A stretch of 64,000 nt of DNA from Escherichia virus TH06: the sequence record MT446386.1; one strand, 5' to 3'. A model generated the notes under the pieces. It made no database searches, was not told where the DNA came from, and saw only the letters and a program-made list of their open reading frames with translations. The translations under genes were made by a program, and so were the position numbers. Below are positions 1,332 to 63,815 of the stretch, piece after piece (position 1 is the stretch's first letter; each line of letters opens with the position of its first letter).

Positions 1332-2221
1332 ATGAAGAGGTAAAAGCTTTAAAGAAAGCTCTTGCAATTAAAATCAAACATTTAAATTTCGTCAGAGATG
1401 AGTTGGAGGAGCTATCCAACTTATCAGGATATGAGTTACAGAATGAGCTTGTAGAGTTTCAAATCAATATTGATGGCGGTAAATACGTAGAAACAACTAG
1501 AGCGATTTTACCTAAAGTTACTGGTAACAAAACTTCTCCAATAGACTACTCACATGACCACACGGAGCAATTAGAAATGGAATCTCAAGGCAATCCAGCA
1601 CTGACCAATATGGTGGGAGATTCCCATTATAAGCCTTTAGTAGTAATTCTTAATGGGCCTCCGGGTTGTGGTAAAGATACGATAGCCAATGCTTGGGTTA
1701 ATGCCCATTCATACCATCACAATTATTCAACCAAATCCTTCAAGGAGCCAATGTACAAGGTAGCTGCTGCTGCACTAGGCATACCTCTAGAAAACTTTCT
1801 AGCACGCTATGAAGACCGTGAATGGAAAGAAAAACCTAGACCAGAATGGGGAGGGAAGTCTGTAAGAGATTTGATGATTTCTACAAGTGAAGACTTCTTA
1901 AAACCTATGTTTGGCAATAATCATATGGGGACTCTTGCTGTAAAGAGCATCAAACAAGAAGGGCTAGGTCAGGATGATATTGTCGTGTTTACTGACGGAG
2001 GTTTTGATGCAGAGGTACGAGAACTAGAAAAGAATTTCCATGTCCAAGTTGTCCAAGTTCTTAGAGATGGTTGCTCTTTTGAGGGAGATTCTCGCTCATA
2101 TATTGAAGGTGAGCAGAGAAAAACATATCTACTGTATAATGACTCAACTGTTGAATCAGCAGTGTTAGATCTAGATTGGATTATTGATCAAGCTCGGGAT
2201 GATATTTATGGAAGAAGTTAA
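1328..2221 (+). CDS. P-loop NTPase, possibly a nucleotide kinase
   Basis: ATGA overlap with upstream stop; Walker A-like LNGPPGCGKDT; track start at 1322 is GTG. Confidence 0.4.
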
Positions 2222-3026
2222 GCTCCCTGAAGTTGCTCTAGTGGATGCTGACGTTCTTCGATATGAAGTGGGTGCTCTTACTCAGGAGCATCCTTTTCTT
2301 GACACAGGACGTGTTCCAGTTGATTACAATTTCATGATTGAACGACTTCAGTACAAGATTGATACGATCATATCTCGCTCAGGTTGCAGTAAGGTTGTAT
2401 TCTACTTCAGCGAAGGTGGTAACTTCCGTTTCGATGTTGCTAAGCAACAAGACTACAAGGCAAACAGACCTCCCGGAGAAAGACCTTTTCATTGGCAAAA
2501 CGTTGGTGATTACATTAAAGCCAAGTACGAATACATTGAGGTCTTTGGGAGAGAAGCTGATGATGCACTAGCTGAAAGGCAACGTAGGGATAAGAATACT
2601 ATCATCTGTACCAGAGACAAGGATTTGTTGATAACTCCCGGATGGCATTATCGCTGGGCTTGTGGAGAAAGGCAGAAAGAAGTCCCTCCTCACTATGTAT
2701 CTGATTTAGTCTCATGGCAAAACTTCTTCTATCAAATGTTGATTGGAGACGGTACGGATAATATTTCCGGATGTGGGGAACGTGAAGAAGTCATGTGGGG
2801 TGGTAAGCTTCAGCTTCGACGTCAAGGAGTAGGGAAGAAGGCAGCAGCTAAATTACTAGCTGGTGTTACAGATAAGTGGACCATGTATCATATAGTACGA
2901 ATGGAATATTATAAGAAGTTCGATACTGAAGATGAAGAGAAGATGCTTGAGAATGCGCGGCTGCTCTTTGTTGGTCAGACTCCTGAAGACCTGTTCGACT
3001 GGACATGGTTAGATAAATCTTGGTAA
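2199..3026 (+). CDS. 5'-3' exonuclease / flap endonuclease (FEN family)
   Basis: Motifs LVDADVLRY, GREADDALA, ICTRDKDLL, IGDGTDNISGCG and GKKAAAKLL (H3TH-like); start uncertain among TTG 2184, ATG 2199, ATG 2208. Confidence 0.6.
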   Translation: MIFMEEVKLPEVALVDADVLRYEVGALTQEHPFLDTGRVPVDYNFMIERLQYKIDTIISRSGCSKVVFYFSEGGNFRFDVAKQQDYKANRPPGERPFHWQNVGDYIKAKYEYIEVFGREADDALAERQRRDKNTIICTRDKDLLITPGWHYRWACGERQKEVPPHYVSDLVSWQNFFYQMLIGDGTDNISGCGEREEVMWGGKLQLRRQGVGKKAAAKLLAGVTDKWTMYHIVRMEYYKKFDTEDEEKMLENARLLFVGQTPEDLFDWTWLDKSW

Positions 3027-44043: not shown

Positions 44044-44209
44044 TTTAATAAAAGGCTGCCTAGAAATAGGTGGCCTTTGTTGTTTTAATTAAGGGTCAAC
44101 TCTTACTTAAACTAACAACGGGTGTATGGTATTGACAGGCATCGGCACGGAACTTGTTACCAACAAGGTTGGCGAATCAAGACCTCTGTGAAGCTCCGAA
44201 GAAATCAAG

Positions 44210-44237
44210 GCAGGTTCGACTCCTGCTCCCCGACCAA
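44210..44237 (+). other. tRNA-like T-arm plus acceptor-3'-like segment (not a complete tRNA)
   Basis: GCAGG-TTCGACT-CCTGC followed by TCCCCGACCAAATC; no matching 5' acceptor strand found. Confidence 0.2.
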
Positions 44238-44256
44238 ATCAGCAAGAGGTGCTTAT

Positions 44257-44610
44257 ATGAGAAGCATGGTTAAAGATTGGGTAACTAAATCAGGTCTTCG
44301 TGCTGTGATTATGCACATGAACGACTCCCACTTTTGTGGATATGTAGAGCTACCAGACAGCTTAAAACATAAAAACTTCACCGGATATAACGGGAATGAA
44401 GAAGTTTGTTATGTAAGTGTTCATGGTGGTGTCACATGGCAAGATACCCTTGAAGAGATGGATGGTTTAGATACAATCGGATTTGATTGTGCCCATGCAG
44501 GTGATAAGACACGGTTCAACCCTAACGGGGTTCCAAGAACAGAAACGTTCTGCATCAACGAATGCGAACAAATGGCTGAACAACTAAGAGATCTCGAATC
44601 AAATGTCTAA
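44257..44610 (+). CDS. hypothetical protein
   Basis: ATG with RBS AGAGGTG; the track's longer form starts in unlikely upstream sequence. Confidence 0.45.
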   Translation: MRSMVKDWVTKSGLRAVIMHMNDSHFCGYVELPDSLKHKNFTGYNGNEEVCYVSVHGGVTWQDTLEEMDGLDTIGFDCAHAGDKTRFNPNGVPRTETFCINECEQMAEQLRDLESNV

Positions 44611-44779
44611 GCAAACAATCAAACATACGCAAGCTGGTTACTCTTATATCAACTCTCCTTGTTGTGGTGCTCGTGTGAATCTGGTTAAGGAAGAGGTTCG
44701 TATCGTTCAGCGTGGCGCTACTGTTGTCCGTTCATGCTGTGTCTGTGGTAATGACATTTTTATCAAAGGTAAAGTATGA
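44603..44779 (+). CDS. small zinc-ribbon-like protein (58 aa)
   Basis: SPCCGARV ... SCCVCGND; below the track cutoff; ATGA overlap with next gene. Confidence 0.35.
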   Translation: MSKQTIKHTQAGYSYINSPCCGARVNLVKEEVRIVQRGATVVRSCCVCGNDIFIKGKV

Positions 44780-45027
44780 AAAACTTCCAAGCTGCACCAA
44801 TCACGAAAGTTATTTCAGTTGATGATGTGATGATGACTGTTCCTCTGAACACTCGTTACATTGCAATTGACAAGATGGGTTATGTATGGGCTTGGAAGAT
44901 TAAGCCTAGCTATAACGCACTGTTCGACGAGTTTGTTTGTACTGGTACGTATAGCCCTACGTTCTTGGGTTTGTTTGGAGAGTTCGAAGGTCAGTATAAA
45001 ATCATCACTCTCCCTGCTTGTGCTTGA
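44776..45027 (+). CDS. hypothetical protein
   Basis: ORF with start/stop overlap. Confidence 0.45.
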   Translation: MKNFQAAPITKVISVDDVMMTVPLNTRYIAIDKMGYVWAWKIKPSYNALFDEFVCTGTYSPTFLGLFGEFEGQYKIITLPACA

Positions 45028-45034
45028 GGTTAGT

Positions 45035-45199
45035 ATGTTCAAGTGGTTTAAACGTCTATTCCATCTGCACGATTGGGTAATTCTCGAGAAGTATACACTA
45101 AAGATCACTGATGATTATGGTGGTACGAAACATAAAGGTTTACGTTATATCATGCAGTGCAAAACATGTGGTTGTATCACCAAGCGGGATATGATCTAA
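45035..45199 (+). CDS. small Cys-containing protein
   Basis: RBS GAGGT; CKTCGC motif; C-terminal part of track ORF 44861..45199. Confidence 0.35.
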   Translation: MFKWFKRLFHLHDWVILEKYTLKITDDYGGTKHKGLRYIMQCKTCGCITKRDMI

Positions 45200-45207
45200 A
45201 TAATTCT

Positions 45208-45283
45208 GCGCTCTTAGCTCAATGGATAGAGCAGTAGCCTTCTAAGCTATTGGTTACAGGTTCGAGTCCTGTAGGGCGCACCA
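45208..45283 (+). tRNA. tRNA-Arg (anticodon TCT)
   Basis: Hand-folded cloverleaf: acceptor GCGCTCT/AGGGCGC with one G-U, D-arm GCTC/GAGC, anticodon stem GTAGC/GCTAT, loop CTTCTAA, T-arm ACAGG-TTCGAGT-CCTGT, encoded CCA. Confidence 0.7.
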
Positions 45284-45377
45284 CATTTAGGGCTAGTATG
45301 GGTGCGGCACCAGAGTTAGTGTATCCCTGTTGAGGCAAGTGCTTTTATAACAGTGGGAATTACTTTCTTAGTGAGCT

Positions 45378-45404
45378 TCTGGTTCGATTCCAGATAGTCC
45401 ACCA
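45378..45404 (+). other. second tRNA-like T-arm plus 3' segment (no canonical cloverleaf)
   Basis: TCTGG-TTCGATT-CCAGA followed by TAGTCCACCAAATC; shares the ACCAAATC tail with 44210..44237. Confidence 0.2.
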
Positions 45405-45423
45405 AATCTAATAGGAGGTAATT

Positions 45424-58928: not shown

Positions 58929-59348
58929 ATGTCAGAAGTAATTTACGTAGCAACTTATGGTTCTCTTCGTCGTGGTCAAGCTAACTATTTAGTTAATGAT
59001 CGAGCTGGTGCTAAGTCAATTGGTGAAGGTTGGACTGAAGACAACTTTGATCTGTTCCGTTACGGTGGTTCCTACTTCCCGAGCATCTCTCTCGCACACA
59101 GCAATAACAATAAGCCTGTTCGTGTAGAAGTGTTTGCTACTGACAAAGCAGGTCTGGAAGGTCCGTATGACCGTCTGGAAGGTTACAATAAACGTAGCCC
59201 TGAAGACAGCTTCTATCAGCGTACTCAGATTGCCGTTAAGCTGGACTCAGGTGAAACTGTTATCGCTTGGATTTATCATATCGACGAAGAACAAGATGTT
59301 CTGGTTGAATCTGGCGACTGGTCAGAGTATCTGAAAAGTGAATCTTGA
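58929..59348 (+). CDS. gamma-glutamyl cyclotransferase (GGCT/AIG2)-like protein
   Basis: N-terminal YVATYGSLRRGQANY and downstream YDRLEGY resemble the GGCT fold signature. Confidence 0.45.
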   Translation: MSEVIYVATYGSLRRGQANYLVNDRAGAKSIGEGWTEDNFDLFRYGGSYFPSISLAHSNNNKPVRVEVFATDKAGLEGPYDRLEGYNKRSPEDSFYQRTQIAVKLDSGETVIAWIYHIDEEQDVLVESGDWSEYLKSES

Positions 59349-59567: not shown

Positions 59568-61358
59568 ATGTCAAAGATCATTTTGGGAGACACAGGTTGT
59601 AAGGAATGTATCTCTCATGGTCGTGATAAAACCCACAACCACATGATTCTCTTCCGTAACGAAGAGACTGGTGAGGAGTGGGGAAGTTGTAACCGTTGTG
59701 GGAATTACGAAGTGTTCGAAAAGGGCACTACACCTACTCCAAACGAGAAGAAAGAGTTATCCCCTGAAGAGTTGAGAGAAGTCTTAGATGATTGCTTAGA
59801 GCTTCCTCAGGGTGAACTTACTCGCCGTTTAATCCCAAAAGCTGTATCAGAGCGTTTTGAGTGTCGTATTGGCCTCAGTCAAACTGATGGTCAGACACCA
59901 GACAGTTACTTCTTTCCTCGTGAACGTGATGGAAACATTGTCGGATATGAGGTTAAGCTGCTAGATAGTAAGAAGTTCTATTACGTCGGCAGTGTGAAAG
60001 AAGCAGATTTGTTCGGTATGGCACAAGCTCAACGTGGAGATGTGTACAACAAGAAGCTGTTCATTTTTGAAGACCCGCTATCCTGTATGTCAGGTTTCCA
60101 TGTCCTTACGGCTTTTACAAATGCAACAAACATTAAACCAGCATGTGTTTCTTTACCGTTCGGTGCAGGTTCAATCTCTTCTGTGTTGTCTCGTAACCGA
60201 GACTTCGTAAATGGTTTTGAGGAGGTTGTGCTCTGCATGGACAACGATGATGCAGGTGAGATAGCTTTAACAAAAGGTCGTTCTTTATTCCCTCATGTTA
60301 AGTTTGCTCGTATTCCTAAAGGAACTTTCCCATACAACGGTGTGGAGAAAGAGATTAAGGATGCGAATGACATGCTTCTGTCTGGTCGTGGTCAAGAGTT
60401 ATTCAACATTCTCAAGTACTCAGCAAAGCGGGAATCTCCTGCTGGAGCTGTAACAATCTTTGATTGTCTTGATGATGCTCTGAAGAAAGCGGAGTGGGGT
60501 ATCCCATATCCGTGGAAGACTCTGAATGAGATGACCTTCGGTATTCGATGGGGAGAGGTGGTAGCAATTGGTGGTGGAGTAGGGAGTGGTAAAACACTCA
60601 TTGCTCACGAGCTGGTTGCCCATCTGTGCTTAGAGCATGGTTTTAATGGAGGTGGCTTCTTCTTGGAAGAGAAGGTAGGCATGTCTGTTAAGAACATTGC
60701 TGGTAAGTCAGCATCAATTCCTTTCCACCGACCTGATGTTGAATATGATGAGGAGGATTTGCGTAATGAAGCACTTCGTTATGCAGACAAATTCTTCTTG
60801 TATGACAACTTCGGACAGAACGAATGGGAAGACATTAAACAGTGTATCCGTTTCTGGGTAGTTGAAAACCAGTGTAAGTTTATCATCCTTGATAACATTA
60901 CCGCTCTGGTATCTCATTTAACACCTTCAGAGATTAACACTGAAATCAGTAAGATTGCTTCCGAGCTTGCTGGTATGTGTAAAGAGTTAGACTTTACCGC
61001 TTTCGTGCTATCTCACCTTAATGCTCCGGCAGGTGGTGCTCCTCATGAAGAAGGTGGACAGGTACGTGAAGTGCAGTTCACTGGTTCTCGTTCCCTTATG
61101 CGTTGGTGTCAGTGTATCATTGGCTTTGAGCGCGACAAGCAAGCTGATGGCTTAGCTAAGAACCTCTCAGTCATTCGATTACTGAAAGAACGTAACTACG
61201 GTCAGACGGGTGTCTGCTATACTAAGTATATCAGTGAAACCGGTAGACTTGTAGAAAGGGAAGACTTTGAAGTTGATGAAGATAATCCATTCGTTTTAAC
61301 TAACGGAGAGGATGCAGCTTCTCTCGTCAACCAAGCAGATGGAGCTTCACCGTGGTAA
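59568..61358 (+). CDS. DNA primase-helicase (T7 gp4-like)
   Basis: N-terminal zinc finger (CKEC...CNRC), TOPRIM-like [10 protein letters not shown], Walker [10 protein letters not shown], Walker B-like FIILDN. Confidence 0.7.
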
Positions 61359-61909
61359 AGAAAAAGAAGAAAGTGTTTGCATTCGATATCGAGAGTAATG
61401 CACTGTACGATGACATAACTAAAGTATGGTGTATTTACATCTTCAATGTTGAAACTGGTGAAAGGTGGGGCTATCGGCCTCACCAAATTGAAGACGGGAT
61501 TCGTAAACTTACAGAAGCTGATGTGCTCGTTGGTCATAACATTATTGACTTCGACTTACCTGCTCTGAAGAAGATGTATCCTTCTTTGATTAAATATCAT
61601 TTTAACGTCTTTGACACTCTATGTCTTAGTCGATATCTTAAACCTGACCGTATTGGTGACAGTCCTGAGTATCCGAAAGGCGACCCTAGACATGGCCCAA
61701 GAGGTCATGGCTTGAAGCAGTGGGGTGAGTTCTTAGAGGAACTTAAAGGAGATTACGGTGAGCAAGAGGAAGCATGGGATGCTTTCACTGAAGATATGTT
61801 TACTTATTGTGAACAGGACGTTAACTTAACCGTTAAGGTTTATAAATACTTGTGTGAACTCACAGGATTCGACCCTTACGACCCACCTTCATTATATTGG
61901 AAAATGTAA
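61352..61909 (+). CDS. DnaQ-like 3'-5' exonuclease (stand-alone)
   Basis: Exo I FDIES, Exo II HNIIDFD, Exo III YCEQD. Confidence 0.6.
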
Positions 61910-61910
61910 A

Positions 61911-63272
61911 ATGATTGTTATCCCGATTAACCAAATTGAAGATAAGGTTTCTCAACAACCTGATATCACTGTTGGTCGTCACTTCATTGAGCAATTGATT
62001 AATAACAACTTAATTCCAGACGGTATCTGTCCCATCATTACTGGTGGGGCTGTTCGAGATGCTGTGCTTAATAACACAGCTCCACATGACATTGATATCT
62101 TTATTGTCAGAGGACAAACACCAAGAACTCAAAACACATTCATCCCAACTGACCGTTGGCAAGCTCTTGGAAGAGAGATTGAAAGTAATGTGAAGGAATG
62201 GCTAGAGTCACAAGATATCGAGTATGCATCCCTTCTTGCTGAAGCTACGAACGAATCCTATGCTGGGGGTTCTCAATTAACATTCACTGATATTATTGAG
62301 TTTCAGTGGAATGGGGTTCGTATCCAATTCATGTTTAATTATCCTACTTCTATTGAAGAGGTATTGGATAATTTTCCTATGATGTGTCGTGGTGCGATGA
62401 CTCTTGACAATTTATTCATGACTTCTCATGGGTATTTGGCTATGACCGCCCCCTGTCCAGTGGTTGTTTCTAGTCGTGAAATCAGATACGTTCACAAGAA
62501 GTGGCCTAACTCGCAAGTATTGAGATTTTCCTCTCCAGCAGTTGCACATCAATACATGGCCCAAACTCGATATCTTCCCACACCCCAGCCGGTTAGTCAT
62601 CTGGTTAATGGATTAGGTCAGGTTTCTCTTATTGAGGATACAACAAGTGCTCAATATTGTGTTAACCGAGACATGAGTCGATTCTTTGGAATCCCTTATG
62701 AAGAGATTCAGTTAATGTCAAGCATTCATGGCTCTAGCCAGATTCGTGCATATTGGTCTGAAGGGTTGACAAACTTAACAACTAATACAGGAGGAGATCT
62801 CCTTGGTCGAGAAGATGAACCTAATCGGCACAATGCAATTGAAGGGGTGTTTGTAGCCCCTGCAATGCGCCGAGCACAAGAGTCACGAAGAGTAAGCCCT
62901 ACTCGTAGAACATCTTTTGAAGAAGCTCTTGGTATTACAAGTGATTCTATGGAGAGATGGATGGCTAGTCCTTCTCGTGGTCGTCCAAATGGTTTAACTG
63001 TTAGCGCACGTCAGTTCTCTGGTCAGGGTTTTGCTGTTGGTGATATCAACGCACCTGTTAGGGCTGTGTGGACTGATGAAGGTGTGGCCCAAGATGTGGC
63101 AGGTAGTCTTGATGTTCCTTCTCATGAGGAACTTGCTGAGACCATCAGTCGAAATCTCGCTGACCGCTTTGTTGCTAACAACCCTGAAGTATTAGAACCT
63201 CAAACCCGCACAGTTCGGTTTGCCGATGAAGCGGGTCGTGGAATCTCTTTTGACATGGAAACAAACAACTAA
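61911..63272 (+). CDS. Pol-beta-superfamily nucleotidyltransferase with a CCA-adding-enzyme-like head motif
   Basis: ITGGAVRDAVL...HDIDIF resembles the GG(A/S)VRD ... D.D motif of class II tRNA nucleotidyltransferases; start chosen at the ATG after the exonuclease stop. Confidence 0.4.
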   Translation: MIVIPINQIEDKVSQQPDITVGRHFIEQLINNNLIPDGICPIITGGAVRDAVLNNTAPHDIDIFIVRGQTPRTQNTFIPTDRWQALGREIESNVKEWLESQDIEYASLLAEATNESYAGGSQLTFTDIIEFQWNGVRIQFMFNYPTSIEEVLDNFPMMCRGAMTLDNLFMTSHGYLAMTAPCPVVVSSREIRYVHKKWPNSQVLRFSSPAVAHQYMAQTRYLPTPQPVSHLVNGLGQVSLIEDTTSAQYCVNRDMSRFFGIPYEEIQLMSSIHGSSQIRAYWSEGLTNLTTNTGGDLLGREDEPNRHNAIEGVFVAPAMRRAQESRRVSPTRRTSFEEALGITSDSMERWMASPSRGRPNGLTVSARQFSGQGFAVGDINAPVRAVWTDEGVAQDVAGSLDVPSHEELAETISRNLADRFVANNPEVLEPQTRTVRFADEAGRGISFDMETNN

Positions 63273-63281
63273 GGAATAAGA

Positions 63282-63815
63282 ATGAGTTTACTAGGAAGTG
63301 TTGAACTGCACGATGTAATTGACAATGGCTATCTGGATGCGGAGCATAAGTATGTTAACGCTGCTAGTGTGGATATCCGTATTGGTGATACTATCCTTGT
63401 TGAAGAACAGGCTGATGGCATCGTTGATATTGATGCGAAAGAGAATCTTCAGTGGAAGGAAGTAAAGATTCCTGAAGAGGGTTTGGTTATCACTCCGGGT
63501 CAGTTCTTCTTGGCTCACTCTATGGAGGAGTTTAATCTTCCAGATAACATCTCAAGTCTGTTTGTTCTGCGTTCATCTATGGCTCGTTGTGGTTTGAACC
63601 ATCTCCACGCTGGGTGGGCAGACGCAGGGTTTAATAGCAGTAAGCTGACATTTGAATTCCATAACGTAACCAAGCATCATAGCTTACGAGTTCGTGCTGG
63701 TATGCGTGTTGGTCAGATGGTTATGTTTGAGCACTCTCATGCAGGGGAGCACTCCTATGCAGTGAAGGGTCGTTATAATAACTCTGAAGGTGTAGTTGCA
63801 TCTAAAGGTGTGTAA
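63282..63815 (+). CDS. dCTP deaminase (Dcd family)
   Basis: SVDIRIG, VITPGQFFLAHSMEEF, RSSMARCG. Confidence 0.55.
   Translation: MSLLGSVELHDVIDNGYLDAEHKYVNAASVDIRIGDTILVEEQADGIVDIDAKENLQWKEVKIPEEGLVITPGQFFLAHSMEEFNLPDNISSLFVLRSSMARCGLNHLHAGWADAGFNSSKLTFEFHNVTKHHSLRVRAGMRVGQMVMFEHSHAGEHSYAVKGRYNNSEGVVASKGV

Follow-up and report, generated by a model that had tools for sequence, protein, structure and literature searches.

A core nucleotidyltransferase in the replication block of Kuravirus TH06, with a predicted class II head and probable kinship to small phage nucleotidyltransferases and Gad2

The nucleotidyltransferase gene and its neighborhood

The window analyzed here is a 64-kb stretch of DNA (64,000 nucleotides, MT446386.1) from Escherichia virus TH06, a phage of the Kuravirus type (phiEco32/SU10-like). 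It contains a complete gene for a nucleotidyltransferase (NTase) within a block of replication genes:

59568..61358, plus strand: T7 gp4-like primase/helicase, invariant upstream member of the gene block
61352..61909, plus strand: stand-alone 3'-5' exonuclease, a homologue of the T7 DNA polymerase exonuclease domain
61911..63272, plus strand: NTase coding sequence, complete (453 amino acids plus stop), homologue of phiEco32 gp73, SU10 CDS74, and phrog_12715
63282..63815, plus strand: dCTP deaminase, invariant downstream neighbor of the NTase

The order primase/helicase, exonuclease, NTase, and dCTP deaminase was kept in every relative examined. The NTase was carried by all 97 relatives (97/97) and is thus a core gene of the phiEco32-like phages (Gordonclarkvirinae); a close exonuclease (at least 60% identical) was likewise present in 97 phage records. 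As a sequence-only reading had placed it, the NTase gene lies behind the stand-alone exonuclease, beginning one base past its stop. In relatives, the same junction is a 4-nt overlap (L005-L007) or a short gap (L010). Because the exonuclease stop and the NTase start are so close, the two genes are probably translationally coupled.

The exonuclease and the corresponding domain of T7 gp5 share 32% identity, and its tblastn search gave 1,901 matches, of which a spread sample fell almost entirely on phage DNA polymerase genes. An RNase D-like identity, with the exonuclease acting on RNA alongside a tailing enzyme, was therefore rejected. Just upstream lies a cluster of amidoligase, ATP-grasp, amidotransferase, and gamma-glutamyl cyclotransferase genes, and many nucleotide-metabolism genes are found nearby.

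Profile comparison matched the NTase to phrog_12715 over its full length (E 4.1e-262, 1-453 / 1-457). Its orthologues, represented by phiEco32 gp73 (YP_001671818.1), SU10 CDS74, and phrog_12715, show 84.5-95% amino acid identity, and the copies in Escherichia phages EC.W2-6 and EC.W8-1 are 100% identical to that of TH06. The label "nucleotidyltransferase" is already public for this gene in GenBank, in PHROGs, and in two papers, and a 2014 description of a gp73 homologue reported a class II CCA-adding-enzyme domain.

Domains and catalytic motifs

The protein can be divided into a conserved core, a helical subdomain, and a tail, with the following features:

61911..62525, plus strand: residues 1-205, conserved catalytic core (Pol-beta head of the class II type and rudimentary neck)
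62025..62108, plus strand: motif A, ICPIITGGAVRDAVLNNTAPHDIDIFIV, aligned to GGAVRD...DxD of CCA-adding enzymes in the PDB
62289..62291, plus strand: D127, probable third catalytic carboxylate, judged from conservation and from its place on the strand adjoining the DxD strand
62370..62387, plus strand: N-F-P-M-M-C, residues 154-159, motif B site, opposite "RRDFTIN" of class II enzymes
62457..62507, plus strand: PVVVSSREIRYVHKKWP, residues 183-199, equivalent of the motif D helix
62526..62768, plus strand: residues 206-286, small family-specific helical subdomain (pLDDT 76-91)
62769..63269, plus strand: residues 287-453, predicted disordered acidic tail, rich in indels (pLDDT 26-52)

The 453-residue open reading frame encodes GGAVRD...DIDIF, in agreement with the GG(S/A)VRD...D.D-like head motif noted in the sequence-only reading. 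Across the NTase family, G45, G46, R49, D50, D60, and D62 never vary, and each of the 27 family representatives has D or E at position 127. D127 is thus the probable third catalytic carboxylate, as judged from the alignment. E130 was also considered for this role and was rejected, since it varies (E/Q/D/N/S), whereas position 127 is always acidic. The Pol-beta-type head therefore carries GGxVRD...DxD together with a candidate third carboxylate, one of the features by which class II CCA enzymes are recognized. The core evolves slowly (dN/dS 0.05-0.08), and its residues 1-205 correspond to the entire length of the ~200-amino acid nucleotidyltransferases of T7-like phages.

The remaining class II motifs have diverged. 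Because a direct hhalign comparison with E. coli Cca, alone or with PcnB, covered motif A only (11-13.5%, 25 columns), motif B was mapped through the profile of the small phage nucleotidyltransferases to "RRDLTIN" of human TRNT1 and "RRDLTIN" of E. coli. At this site, the NTase has N154-F155-P156 where class II enzymes have RRD, and the RRD triad is absent; the small phage enzymes and Gad2 read FDFT(I/V)C. In the motif D equivalent, P183, R189, Y193, K196, and W198 align with P, R, Y, K, and the final Y of the Gad2 segment YPVVSALRVQKYEDKGY. CCA enzymes have an E-D-x-x-R triad here, which the NTase has lost: with P183 placed on the P of "EDPLR", the triad sites are occupied by P181, C182, and V185, and alternative alignments did not restore E-D-x-x-R in motif D either.

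The AlphaFold2 model of the NTase is confident over residues 1-286. Together with its structural neighbors, it supports both the Pol-beta fold proposed in the sequence-only reading and descent of the head from the class II (CCA/PAP) group; neither a lack of that fold nor a lack of the two catalytic carboxylates, either of which would speak against that reading, was found. Taken together, alignment and model make the TH06 NTase best read as a catalytically intact, phage-specific "minimal" nucleotidyltransferase with a predicted head of the class II (CCA-adding/poly(A) polymerase) type.

The helical subdomain evolves fast (74% identity to phiEco32, dN/dS 0.10-0.25). The tail predicted to be disordered has a pI of 4.9 and, despite its indels, a dN/dS of 0.11-0.19, which indicates purifying selection; the NTase as a whole is acidic throughout (pI 4.85-4.9). 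The C-terminal residue is aromatic in 10 of the 27 family representatives, and the Kuravirus protein itself ends in ...FDMETNN. The TH06 primase/helicase ends in ...ASPW. In T7, gp4 and gp2.5 have acidic, Phe-terminated tails that dock on the polymerase. An S-F-x-x-A-x-G motif in the NTase tail was rejected as a family feature, as it occurs only in Kuravirus, Nieuwekanaalvirus, Suseptimavirus, and one metagenomic clade.

Relationship to small phage nucleotidyltransferases and Gad2

A word-indexed homologue search found Kuravirus orthologues only; an alignment query combined with an exhaustive search of representatives reached 27 family clusters and the small nucleotidyltransferases of other phages. 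The TH06 protein matched the small-enzyme family phrog_1614 with an E of 1.2e-7, and hhalign of the NTase family against the small phage enzymes gave 99.5-99.7% (E 2e-25 / 3e-23) over 154-157 columns. Structural comparison pointed to the same group, since the best matches among viral proteins in BFVD were those of phages phiAS7, PS3, VEN, and LKD16 (E 1e-6 to 4e-5).

The small enzymes, in turn, matched the Gad2 family in hhalign at 98.2-99.5%. The direct comparison of the NTase and Gad2 families gave 88-91% (E 1-3e-6, 123-129 columns), and the NTase family profile against a single Gad2 sequence was not significant. The outlier P0056 had a strong precomputed match to Pfam PF26128 ("Gad2"), the syntenic P0055 a weak one, and the Kuravirus protein P0001 a faint one; a local Pfam scan of the NTase did not return PF26128. 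A tblastn search of phage genomes with the PF26128-positive P0056 gave nothing useful, the Gad2 N-domain profile found no solved structure, and the BASEL supplementary files, including the AntiDefenseFinder predictions, contain no "gad2" entry. Thus, profile comparisons indicate that the NTase, the small nucleotidyltransferases of T7-like phages, and Gad2 belong to one superfamily, in which the relation of the Kuravirus enzyme to Gad2 appears remote. PADLOC models gave no match to the NTase; defense-type nucleotidyltransferases (CD-NTase, MenT/AbiEii, and MNT antitoxin) were neither matched by PADLOC nor the closest structural neighbors.

According to published work, Gad2 is a predicted nucleotidyltransferase that is toxic when expressed; it is necessary for the resistance of phage SPbetaL7 to Gabija, and a homologue is sufficient. 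In E. coli and P. putida, overexpression of some small phage nucleotidyltransferases is likewise toxic, and part of this group bears a Gad2-family annotation. Since the closest functional relative is the anti-Gabija protein Gad2, a role in counter-defense or DNA metabolism is more likely for the NTase, as far as homology can tell, than one in tRNA repair.

Relationship to tRNA CCA-adding enzymes

The structural neighbors of the NTase are CCA-adding enzymes, but the alignments with these proteins, which are 344-517 residues long, span 171-176 residues only. At the sequence level, PF01743 scored 20.4 bits, under its gathering cutoff of 23; no NCBIfam match was found at E <= 10, and neither did phmmer against PDB sequences return any match at that threshold. 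Because RRD, EDxxR, and the tRNA-binding body and tail have been lost, the NTase, as judged from sequence and model, shares only the catalytic head with CCA-adding enzymes and is not one of them.

The phage carries a tRNA-Arg(UCU) and two tRNA-like fragments (T-arm, acceptor, and CCA), and CCA is genome encoded in the tRNA-Arg and in both 3' fragments. The stretch containing the fragments is covered to at least 80% by only 16 public records, whereas the NTase is a core gene. The link to tRNA 3' ends that had been drawn from the sequence alone is therefore unsupported: motifs B and D are lost, body and tail are missing, the protein is acidic, CCA is already encoded, and the fragments vary while the enzyme is core. 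The fallback offered in the same reading, a different template-independent nucleotidyltransferase, appears to be the better description.

Possible functions

An enzyme repairing the 3' (CCA) ends of the phage tRNA-Arg, of the tRNA-like fragments, or of toxin-damaged host tRNAs would account for the class II type of motif A, for the CCA-adding enzymes among the structural neighbors, and for the presence of tRNA-Arg(UCU) and the two fragments in the phage. The divergence of motifs B and D, the acidic nature of the protein, its lack of a body or tail domain, the encoded CCA, and the variability of the tRNA region among Kuraviruses that share the enzyme all count against it, as does the fact that the host has its own CCA enzyme, and we regard such a role as extremely unlikely. 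An RNA 3'-tailing enzyme, adding poly(A) or another homopolymer to host or phage RNAs and so altering how stable these are (faster decay of host mRNA, for example, could feed nucleotide recycling), is very unlikely too: the protein is acidic and has no RNA-binding domain, the base-selecting EDxxR is lost, and placement in a DNA replication block lends no support.

A terminal transferase accessory to the replisome would extend 3' ends of DNA or primers by untemplated nucleotides, serving end processing, concatemer formation, or protection of the linear, terminally redundant genome. It would work with the cotranslated exonuclease and the T7-like replisome, tethered by its acidic tail to polymerase or helicase, with no defense system needed. 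The invariant place between exonuclease and dCTP deaminase, where start and stop codons abut or overlap, is in line with this, as are the homology of the exonuclease to that of T7 gp5 and the position of small T7-like homologues between primase/helicase and DNA polymerase. The RRD of class II enzymes reads the ribose 2'-OH, and its loss is therefore compatible with dNTP use. The acidic tail under purifying selection, the aromatic last residue in part of the family (10/27), and the ...ASPW end of the primase/helicase recall the T7 gp4 and gp2.5 tails, but the Kuravirus protein lacks a terminal aromatic. Moreover, a need for a terminal transferase is not known from any T7-type replication system, the gene is absent from T7 and present in a minority of Autographiviridae, and an acidic protein without an evident DNA-binding surface would be an odd DNA-end enzyme; we consider this role rather unlikely. 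A part in covalent DNA modification, together with dCTP deaminase and thymidylate synthase, is unlikely. To our knowledge, no DNA hypermodification pathway uses a class II Pol-beta-type nucleotidyltransferase, no Kuravirus DNA modification was reported in the literature searched, and dCTP deaminase with ThyX amounts to ordinary dTTP supply. In its favor are the nearby nucleotide-metabolism genes and the upstream amidoligase-containing cluster, and the BASEL authors, who suggested such a modification behind the restriction-modification (RM) resistance of Gordonclarkvirinae, point explicitly to the dCTP deaminase and nucleotidyltransferase locus. According to the same study, these phages are strongly RM resistant despite many recognition sites and have no known modification or inhibitor genes.

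The explanation that we find best, and hold tentatively, is by analogy with Gad2: an active NTase working on a non-tRNA acceptor may protect replicating phage DNA from Gabija-type immunity. Expressed with the replication block, where its gene comes right after that of the separate proofreading exonuclease of the polymerase, the enzyme would use Mg2+ and an NTP or dNTP for nucleotide transfer. The acceptor might be a nucleic acid 3' end arising in phage DNA replication or a host protein, and the conserved acidic tail might be where a partner protein docks. Such an activity could shield replicating DNA enzymatically from Gabija-type nuclease immunity, which senses DNA ends and nucleotide levels, as with Gad2. 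Consistent with this are the confident fold over residues 1-286, the invariant G45, G46, D60, and D62, the acidic position 127, and the low core dN/dS; the profile network joining the NTase family, the small nucleotidyltransferases, and Gad2; the need for Gad2 against Gabija and the toxicity of small phage enzymes; and the resistance of Gordonclarkvirinae to RM systems. However, the Gad2 link is remote, with a nonsignificant single-sequence match and a faint Kuravirus Pfam match, and known anti-defense genes usually occupy accessory, variable loci, whereas the NTase is strictly conserved in a replication block. Because of this strict core status, a housekeeping role in DNA metabolism fits equally well. 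An analogy with Gad2 also points to no particular chemistry. The BASEL defense panel applied to Gordonclarkvirinae did not include Gabija. A bolder version seems improbable: during phage DNA synthesis, a replisome-tethered, Gad2-related NTase would add covalent caps or tails to the DNA ends or would nucleotidylate a nuclease complex of the host. It would so block end-sensing systems such as Gabija and RecBCD, and perhaps restriction enzymes, and would be the factor behind the broad nuclease resistance of Gordonclarkvirinae.

Implications

Many lytic phages, among them therapy candidates from the Kuravirus and T7-like groups, carry small class II-like nucleotidyltransferases, and placing the Kuravirus NTase in the superfamily of these enzymes corrects a tempting "tRNA CCA-adding" reading. 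The placement also ties the enzyme to the restriction resistance of Gordonclarkvirinae and to a relative, Gad2, that defeats the widespread defense system Gabija. Moreover, the Kuravirus NTase is a genetically tractable core-gene member of the superfamily, as the BASEL phages Bas86-94 infect E. coli K-12 with restored O16 O-antigen. If DNA-end capping or nuclease nucleotidylation proved true, it would be the first chemistry for the superfamily of Gad2 and the small phage enzymes, and it would mean that a core replication module can have anti-defense activity built in. If the function is ordinary, such as a dispensable accessory activity, the finding is a refined annotation only.

Comparison with known systems

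The orthologues phiEco32 gp73 and SU10 CDS74 are of the same length class as the TH06 NTase and also lie between the exonuclease subunit and dCTP deaminase, with no material difference. The class II tRNA nucleotidyltransferases, like bacterial poly(A) polymerase I, have a PF01743 head (e.g., PDB 3AQL, 1MIV, 3H37, and 1OU5) and are 13-17% identical to the TH06 NTase. CCA-adding members have RRD in motif B, which contacts ribose and triphosphate, and EDxxR in motif D, a protein template selecting CTP or ATP, neither of which the NTase conserves. They bind the top half of tRNA with all-helical body and tail domains, both missing from the acidic phage protein.

Closer relatives are the small nucleotidyltransferases (~180-230 amino acids; phrog_1614, 7967, 10174, and 4400) of T7-like and other phages, such as LKD16 Q0E649, fHe-Kpn01 Gp22, Emajogi gp22, and Pectobacterium phage PP47 gp28. 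They share with the TH06 NTase the fold and the motifs AGGAVRD...DxDIF, hQhh, F-x-x-x-x-C, and P...R...K, and they too adjoin primase/helicase and DNA polymerase genes. They consist of the core alone, whereas the TH06 enzyme continues into a helical subdomain and an acidic tail of 170 residues that is predicted to be disordered; their motif B equivalent has F-D instead of F-P.

Gad2 (PF26128; Bacillus phage SPbetaL7 and a Brevibacillus laterosporus prophage) has an N-terminal nucleotidyltransferase domain that appears remotely homologous to the NTase. Its motif set comprises AGG..., DxD(I/V)(Y/F)F, hQhI, FDFT(V/I)C, and YP...LRV.KY..KGY, of which GG, DxDIF, IQFM, P183, R189, Y193, and K196 have counterparts in the NTase, the last four aligning with "YP..S.LRV.KY..KGY". 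Both proteins are phage borne, and both are without the body and tail of CCA enzymes. However, Gad2 has AGG(A/T)ITS where the NTase has the CCA-type GGAVRD, and F-D-F-T-V-C where the NTase has F-P-M-M-C. The C-terminal half of Gad2 is a different ~200-amino acid fold (about residues 190-400) with no counterpart in the NTase, and the alignments stop at Gad2 residue ~163. Last, Gad2 sits in an accessory anti-defense locus of temperate phages, while the NTase is part of the core replication block.

Identity of the gene and its domain anatomy

The window is the genome of a phiEco32-like E. coli podovirus (Kuravirus, Gordonclarkvirinae), in which the predicted nucleotidyltransferase (NTase) is encoded as follows:

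61911-63272, + strand: NTase ORF, ATG 61911 to TAA 63270-63272, 453 aa

As the sequence-only reading had described, the ORF carries the motif peptide ICPIITGGAVRDAVLNNTAPHDIDIFIV (residues 39-66) and follows a stand-alone 3'-5' exonuclease, a 185-aa DEDD protein; it begins 1 base past the exonuclease stop. A GTG start at 61854 is mechanically possible; it was rejected because every homologue starts at the ATG, with 'MI.IP'. The 1,362-base gene is 100% identical to that of Escherichia phages EC.W2-6 and EC.W8-1 and is matched over at least 80% of its length by 69 records, while phiEco32 gp73, at 84.5% identity, is its orthologue. The label 'nucleotidyltransferase' is used in RefSeq, in many GenBank records, and for PHROG family phrog_12715, which matches the protein full-length (E 4e-262). 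Mass spectrometry of a preparation concentrated with PEG but not purified on CsCl picked up one peptide of a homologue (PMC4281155), and our literature search for experiments on the protein found none. The gene and its annotation are already public. The present analysis adds a negative test for membership of the CCA-adding enzymes, an account of the domains, and the finding that the gene is core; it also adds a link, remote but reproducible, to Gabija anti-defence 2 (Gad2) and to the small NTases that T7-like phages carry.

An AlphaFold2 model based on 37 sequences had high confidence over residues 1-286 (block means mostly in the range 85-96); confidence dropped sharply over residues 287-453 (pLDDT 26-52), where only short helices formed. 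By tblastn, alignments across Kuravirus, Nieuwekanaalvirus, and Suseptimavirus were limited to the first ~260 residues, with identities of about 40% to KBNP1711 (Nieuwekanaalvirus) and about 33% to SU7 (Suseptimavirus). Despite abundant indels, the tail is under purifying selection: dN/dS against phiEco32 and Bas91 was 0.11-0.19 in the tail and 0.05-0.08 in the core. Core and tail are both acidic, with pI values of 4.85 and 4.90, respectively, which is not what a general nucleic-acid-binding protein would show.

A core gene beside a detached proofreading module

The gene lies in a conserved replication block, for which the relevant features are:

57025-58227 and 58929-59348: ligase/amidoligase cluster (phiEco32 locus L001, 1-6438)
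59568-61358, + strand: T7 gp4-like primase/helicase, C terminus ...NQADGASPW
61352-61909, + strand: exonuclease module (phiEco32 L001, 8442-8999)
phiEco32 L001, 16991-18835: polymerase body, 614 aa

The order primase/helicase, exonuclease, NTase, and dCTP deaminase was found in phiEco32, Bas91, KBNP1711, and SU7, and in all of the metagenomic relatives examined, the most distant at about 30% identity. In relatives L005-L007, the start of NTase and the stop of the exonuclease gene share 4 nt; in L010, a few bases separate the two genes. Among the relatives examined, the sole interruption of the block was an HNH/NUMOD4 homing endonuclease gene placed exactly between NTase and dCTP deaminase (L005 9036-9524; ENA ERZ1305919). 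Close relatives of the exonuclease (at least 60%) numbered 97 in the phage collection, the same as the records bearing NTase; thus, NTase is a core gene of the lineage. The exonuclease is a homologue of the T7 DNA polymerase (gp5) exonuclease domain, with 32% identity, and the phiEco32 polymerase body, annotated 'lacks 5'-3' and 3'-5' exonuclease domains', lies 8 kb downstream. The polymerase is a split T7-type (family A) enzyme, with its proofreading subunit detached and encoded next to NTase.

Between the exonuclease and the polymerase body lie the genes for NTase, dCTP deaminase, a Dps-like protein, thioredoxin, ThyX, ligase, and PhoH. At the end of the primase/helicase, a flexible stretch of acidic or neutral character leads to an aromatic last residue. 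An 82-aa ORF (58234-58482, + strand), recorded as a hypothetical protein, occupies the position of phiEco32 gene 79, whose product is the phage inhibitor of host RNA polymerase. The cluster directly upstream of the replication genes encodes a COOH-NH2 ligase, an amidoligase, a GlmS-like glutamine amidotransferase, a RimK-like ATP-grasp ligase (400 aa), and a gamma-glutamyl cyclotransferase, and is conserved even in distant metagenomic relatives. Given that the restriction-modification (RM) resistance of these phages is unexplained (PMC11990801), this cluster may conceivably modify DNA or protein with a peptide-type group.

A class II active site without tRNA specificity elements

The earlier proposal of a CCA-like catalytic head called for a Pol-beta fold with catalytic carboxylates, and both are supported: the structural neighbors of the model are class II enzymes, and the carboxylates are conserved.

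Structural neighbors of NTase (entry, protein, score)
3AQL, bacterial poly(A) polymerase, 10.3
1MIV, B. stearothermophilus CCA enzyme, 9.6
4WBY, poly A polymerase family tRNA-processing enzyme, 9.5
3H37, T. maritima CCA enzyme, 9.1
1OU5, human CCA enzyme, 8.7

G45, G46, R49, D50, D60, and D62 are invariant in the family, and position 127 is D or E in 27 of 27 representatives, making D127 the probable third carboxylate. E130 was also considered and was rejected as its position varies. The two-metal Pol-beta active site is intact and under strong purifying selection.

Direct similarity to class II enzymes ends past motif A. PF01743 scored 20.4 bits, under its cut-off of 23, over profile positions 3-82 only; the family profile aligned with CCA enzymes in the PDB over residues 43-121 only and with E. 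coli Cca/PcnB over only 25 columns. Later motifs were mapped through a profile of the small (~200-aa) phage NTases. An exhaustive search of 1.84 billion representatives returned only 26 proteins at E <1e-20, with the domain nearly always starting at residue 1, and further phage proteins of ~190-230 aa at E 1e-6 to 1e-3 (phrog_1614, 7967, 10174, and 4400). The small phage NTases aligned with human TRNT1 across the whole span of motifs A to D (E 1.5e-6 over 169 positions), with E. coli Cca/PcnB at 95% (145 columns), and with the NTase family at 99.5-99.7%. Through this intermediate, motif B 'RRDLTIN' corresponds to 'sFDfniC' and then to N154-F155-P156-M-M-C159 of NTase, and motif D 'EDPLR' to P181-C182-P183-V184-V185. 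In the CCA enzymes of Bst and human, contact with the ribose is made through motif B, while motif D is the protein template selecting CTP and ATP; by these alignments, NTase has lost both. Neither the model nor the structural comparison revealed a tRNA-holding helical body or tail. NTase thus lacks the elements that give class II enzymes their tRNA and C/A specificity. Class II ancestry, motif A, and the carboxylates were borne out, and NTase is most probably not a CCA-adding or tRNA enzyme.

The one phage tRNA, Arg(UCU), which the earlier proposal had connected with the enzyme, already has a genome-encoded CCA, and an Rfam scan of the window found nothing else at threshold. The tRNA-like 3' fragments do exist:

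45208-45283: tRNA-Arg(UCU), CCA encoded
about 44205-44236, + strand: T-arm GGTTCGAxTCC, 3' acceptor strand, and CCA
about 45372-45404, + strand: T-arm GGTTCGAxTCC, 3' acceptor strand, and CCA

Both remnants lack the 5' half, including the 5' acceptor strand, and neither ARAGORN nor Rfam called them. The T-loop motif with at most one mismatch occurred 6 times in the window versus 2.2 expected, a count reached in 1 of 100 shuffles. Each remnant lies between genes, with a Shine-Dalgarno sequence and ATG following about 20 nt downstream, and the two flank the genuine tRNA. They may have arisen by decay of tRNA genes or as scars of recombination, or they may serve as mRNA processing signals. The surrounding segment of small ORFs (44150-45420) is 94.4% identical to EC.W2-6, as compared to 100% for the NTase gene, and has coverage of 80% or more in only 16 records; it is a mosaic, fast-turnover segment, variable among Kuraviruses. 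That the remnants encode CCA, lack a 5' acceptor strand, and lie in a variable region while NTase is core argues against a link between them and the enzyme.

Relationship to Gad2 and the small phage NTases

A precomputed Pfam match to PF26128 (Gad2) was present on the borderline relative P0056, recorded as 'weak' on P0055, which shares the exonuclease-NTase-dCTP deaminase synteny, and as 'faint' on a Kuravirus orthologue. We compared profiles using nine Gad2 homologues (Supplementary Table 10 of Yirmiya et al.). The small phage NTases matched Gad2 at 98.2-99.5% (E 3.6e-14 and 2.3e-23, 156-158 columns) and the NTase family matched the Gad2 family at 88-91% (E 1.1e-6 and 2.9e-6, 123-129 columns); against a single Gad2 sequence, the NTase family gave no significant match (E 0.026, 26 columns). 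In the family-to-family alignment, P183, R189, Y193, K196, and W198 align with 'YPVVSALRVQKYEDKGY' of Gad2. On the basis of these alignments, NTase is best placed as a putative divergent branch of a phage-specific superfamily that originated from a class II head and neck and includes Gad2.

The strongest PF26128 match belongs to the outlier P0056 (287 aa; L012, Logan SRR20819506, gene 2161-3024), whose gene adjoins a ClpP protease gene and not replication genes; the superfamily thus occurs outside replication modules too. The BASEL supplementary files, AntiDefenseFinder predictions included, contain no 'gad2' entry, a further point against counting NTase as a clear Gad2 family member.

SPbeta-like Bacillus phages carry Gad2 as their second Gabija anti-defence protein: its deletion renders SPbetaL7 Gabija-sensitive, a Brevibacillus prophage homologue alone suffices against Gabija, AlphaFold predicts a nucleotidyltransferase domain, and expression of SPbetaL7 Gad2 is toxic (Yirmiya et al. 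preprint). As of February 2026, the mechanism of Gad2 was still given as unknown (PMC12904381).

Possible functions

NTase would use an NTP or dNTP as donor and pass a nucleotide on to an acceptor other than a tRNA end, and the chemistry may be DNA end-tailing or capping, or nucleotidylation of a host protein. We tentatively rank a counter-defence role first, because Gad2, the only superfamily member with a phenotype, is an enzymatic inhibitor of a nuclease-based defence and these phages show unexplained nuclease resistance. According to a recent review, Gabija responds both to inhibition of RecBCD and to DNA ends. The main rival, a housekeeping role in the replisome, is rather unlikely in our estimate; the core status of NTase and its coupling to the exonuclease favor it. 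T7 gp4 and gp2.5 have acidic, Phe-terminated tails, and gp4 docks on its polymerase through the tail; the acidic NTase tail, the aromatic last residue (F, W, or Y) in 10 of 27 family representatives, and the ...ASPW end of the primase/helicase recall this arrangement and are suggestive of such a role.

The BASEL study found the RM resistance of Gordonclarkvirinae remarkable and offered dCTP deaminase and the nucleotidyltransferase as a possible explanation (PMC11990801); we consider a part for NTase in DNA modification unlikely, and RNA tailing more doubtful still. Repair of tRNA CCA ends is very improbable, given the loss of motifs B and D, the missing tRNA-holding body and tail, the CCA already encoded by the phage tRNA and the remnants, and the cca gene that the host itself possesses. 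No surprising feature has been demonstrated for NTase; its value is as a tractable starting point for working out the chemistry of the superfamily.

Small homologues in Autographiviridae lie between primase/helicase and DNA polymerase (PMC7693777); one small phage NTase, Emajogi gp22, adjoins gp23, and overexpression was toxic for two such homologues. NTase is not a clear member of the Gad2 family: the C-terminal half of Gad2 has no counterpart in it, the F-D of Gad2 at the motif B equivalent is F-P in NTase, and its motif A, GGAVRD, is more CCA-like than the AGGxITS of Gad2.
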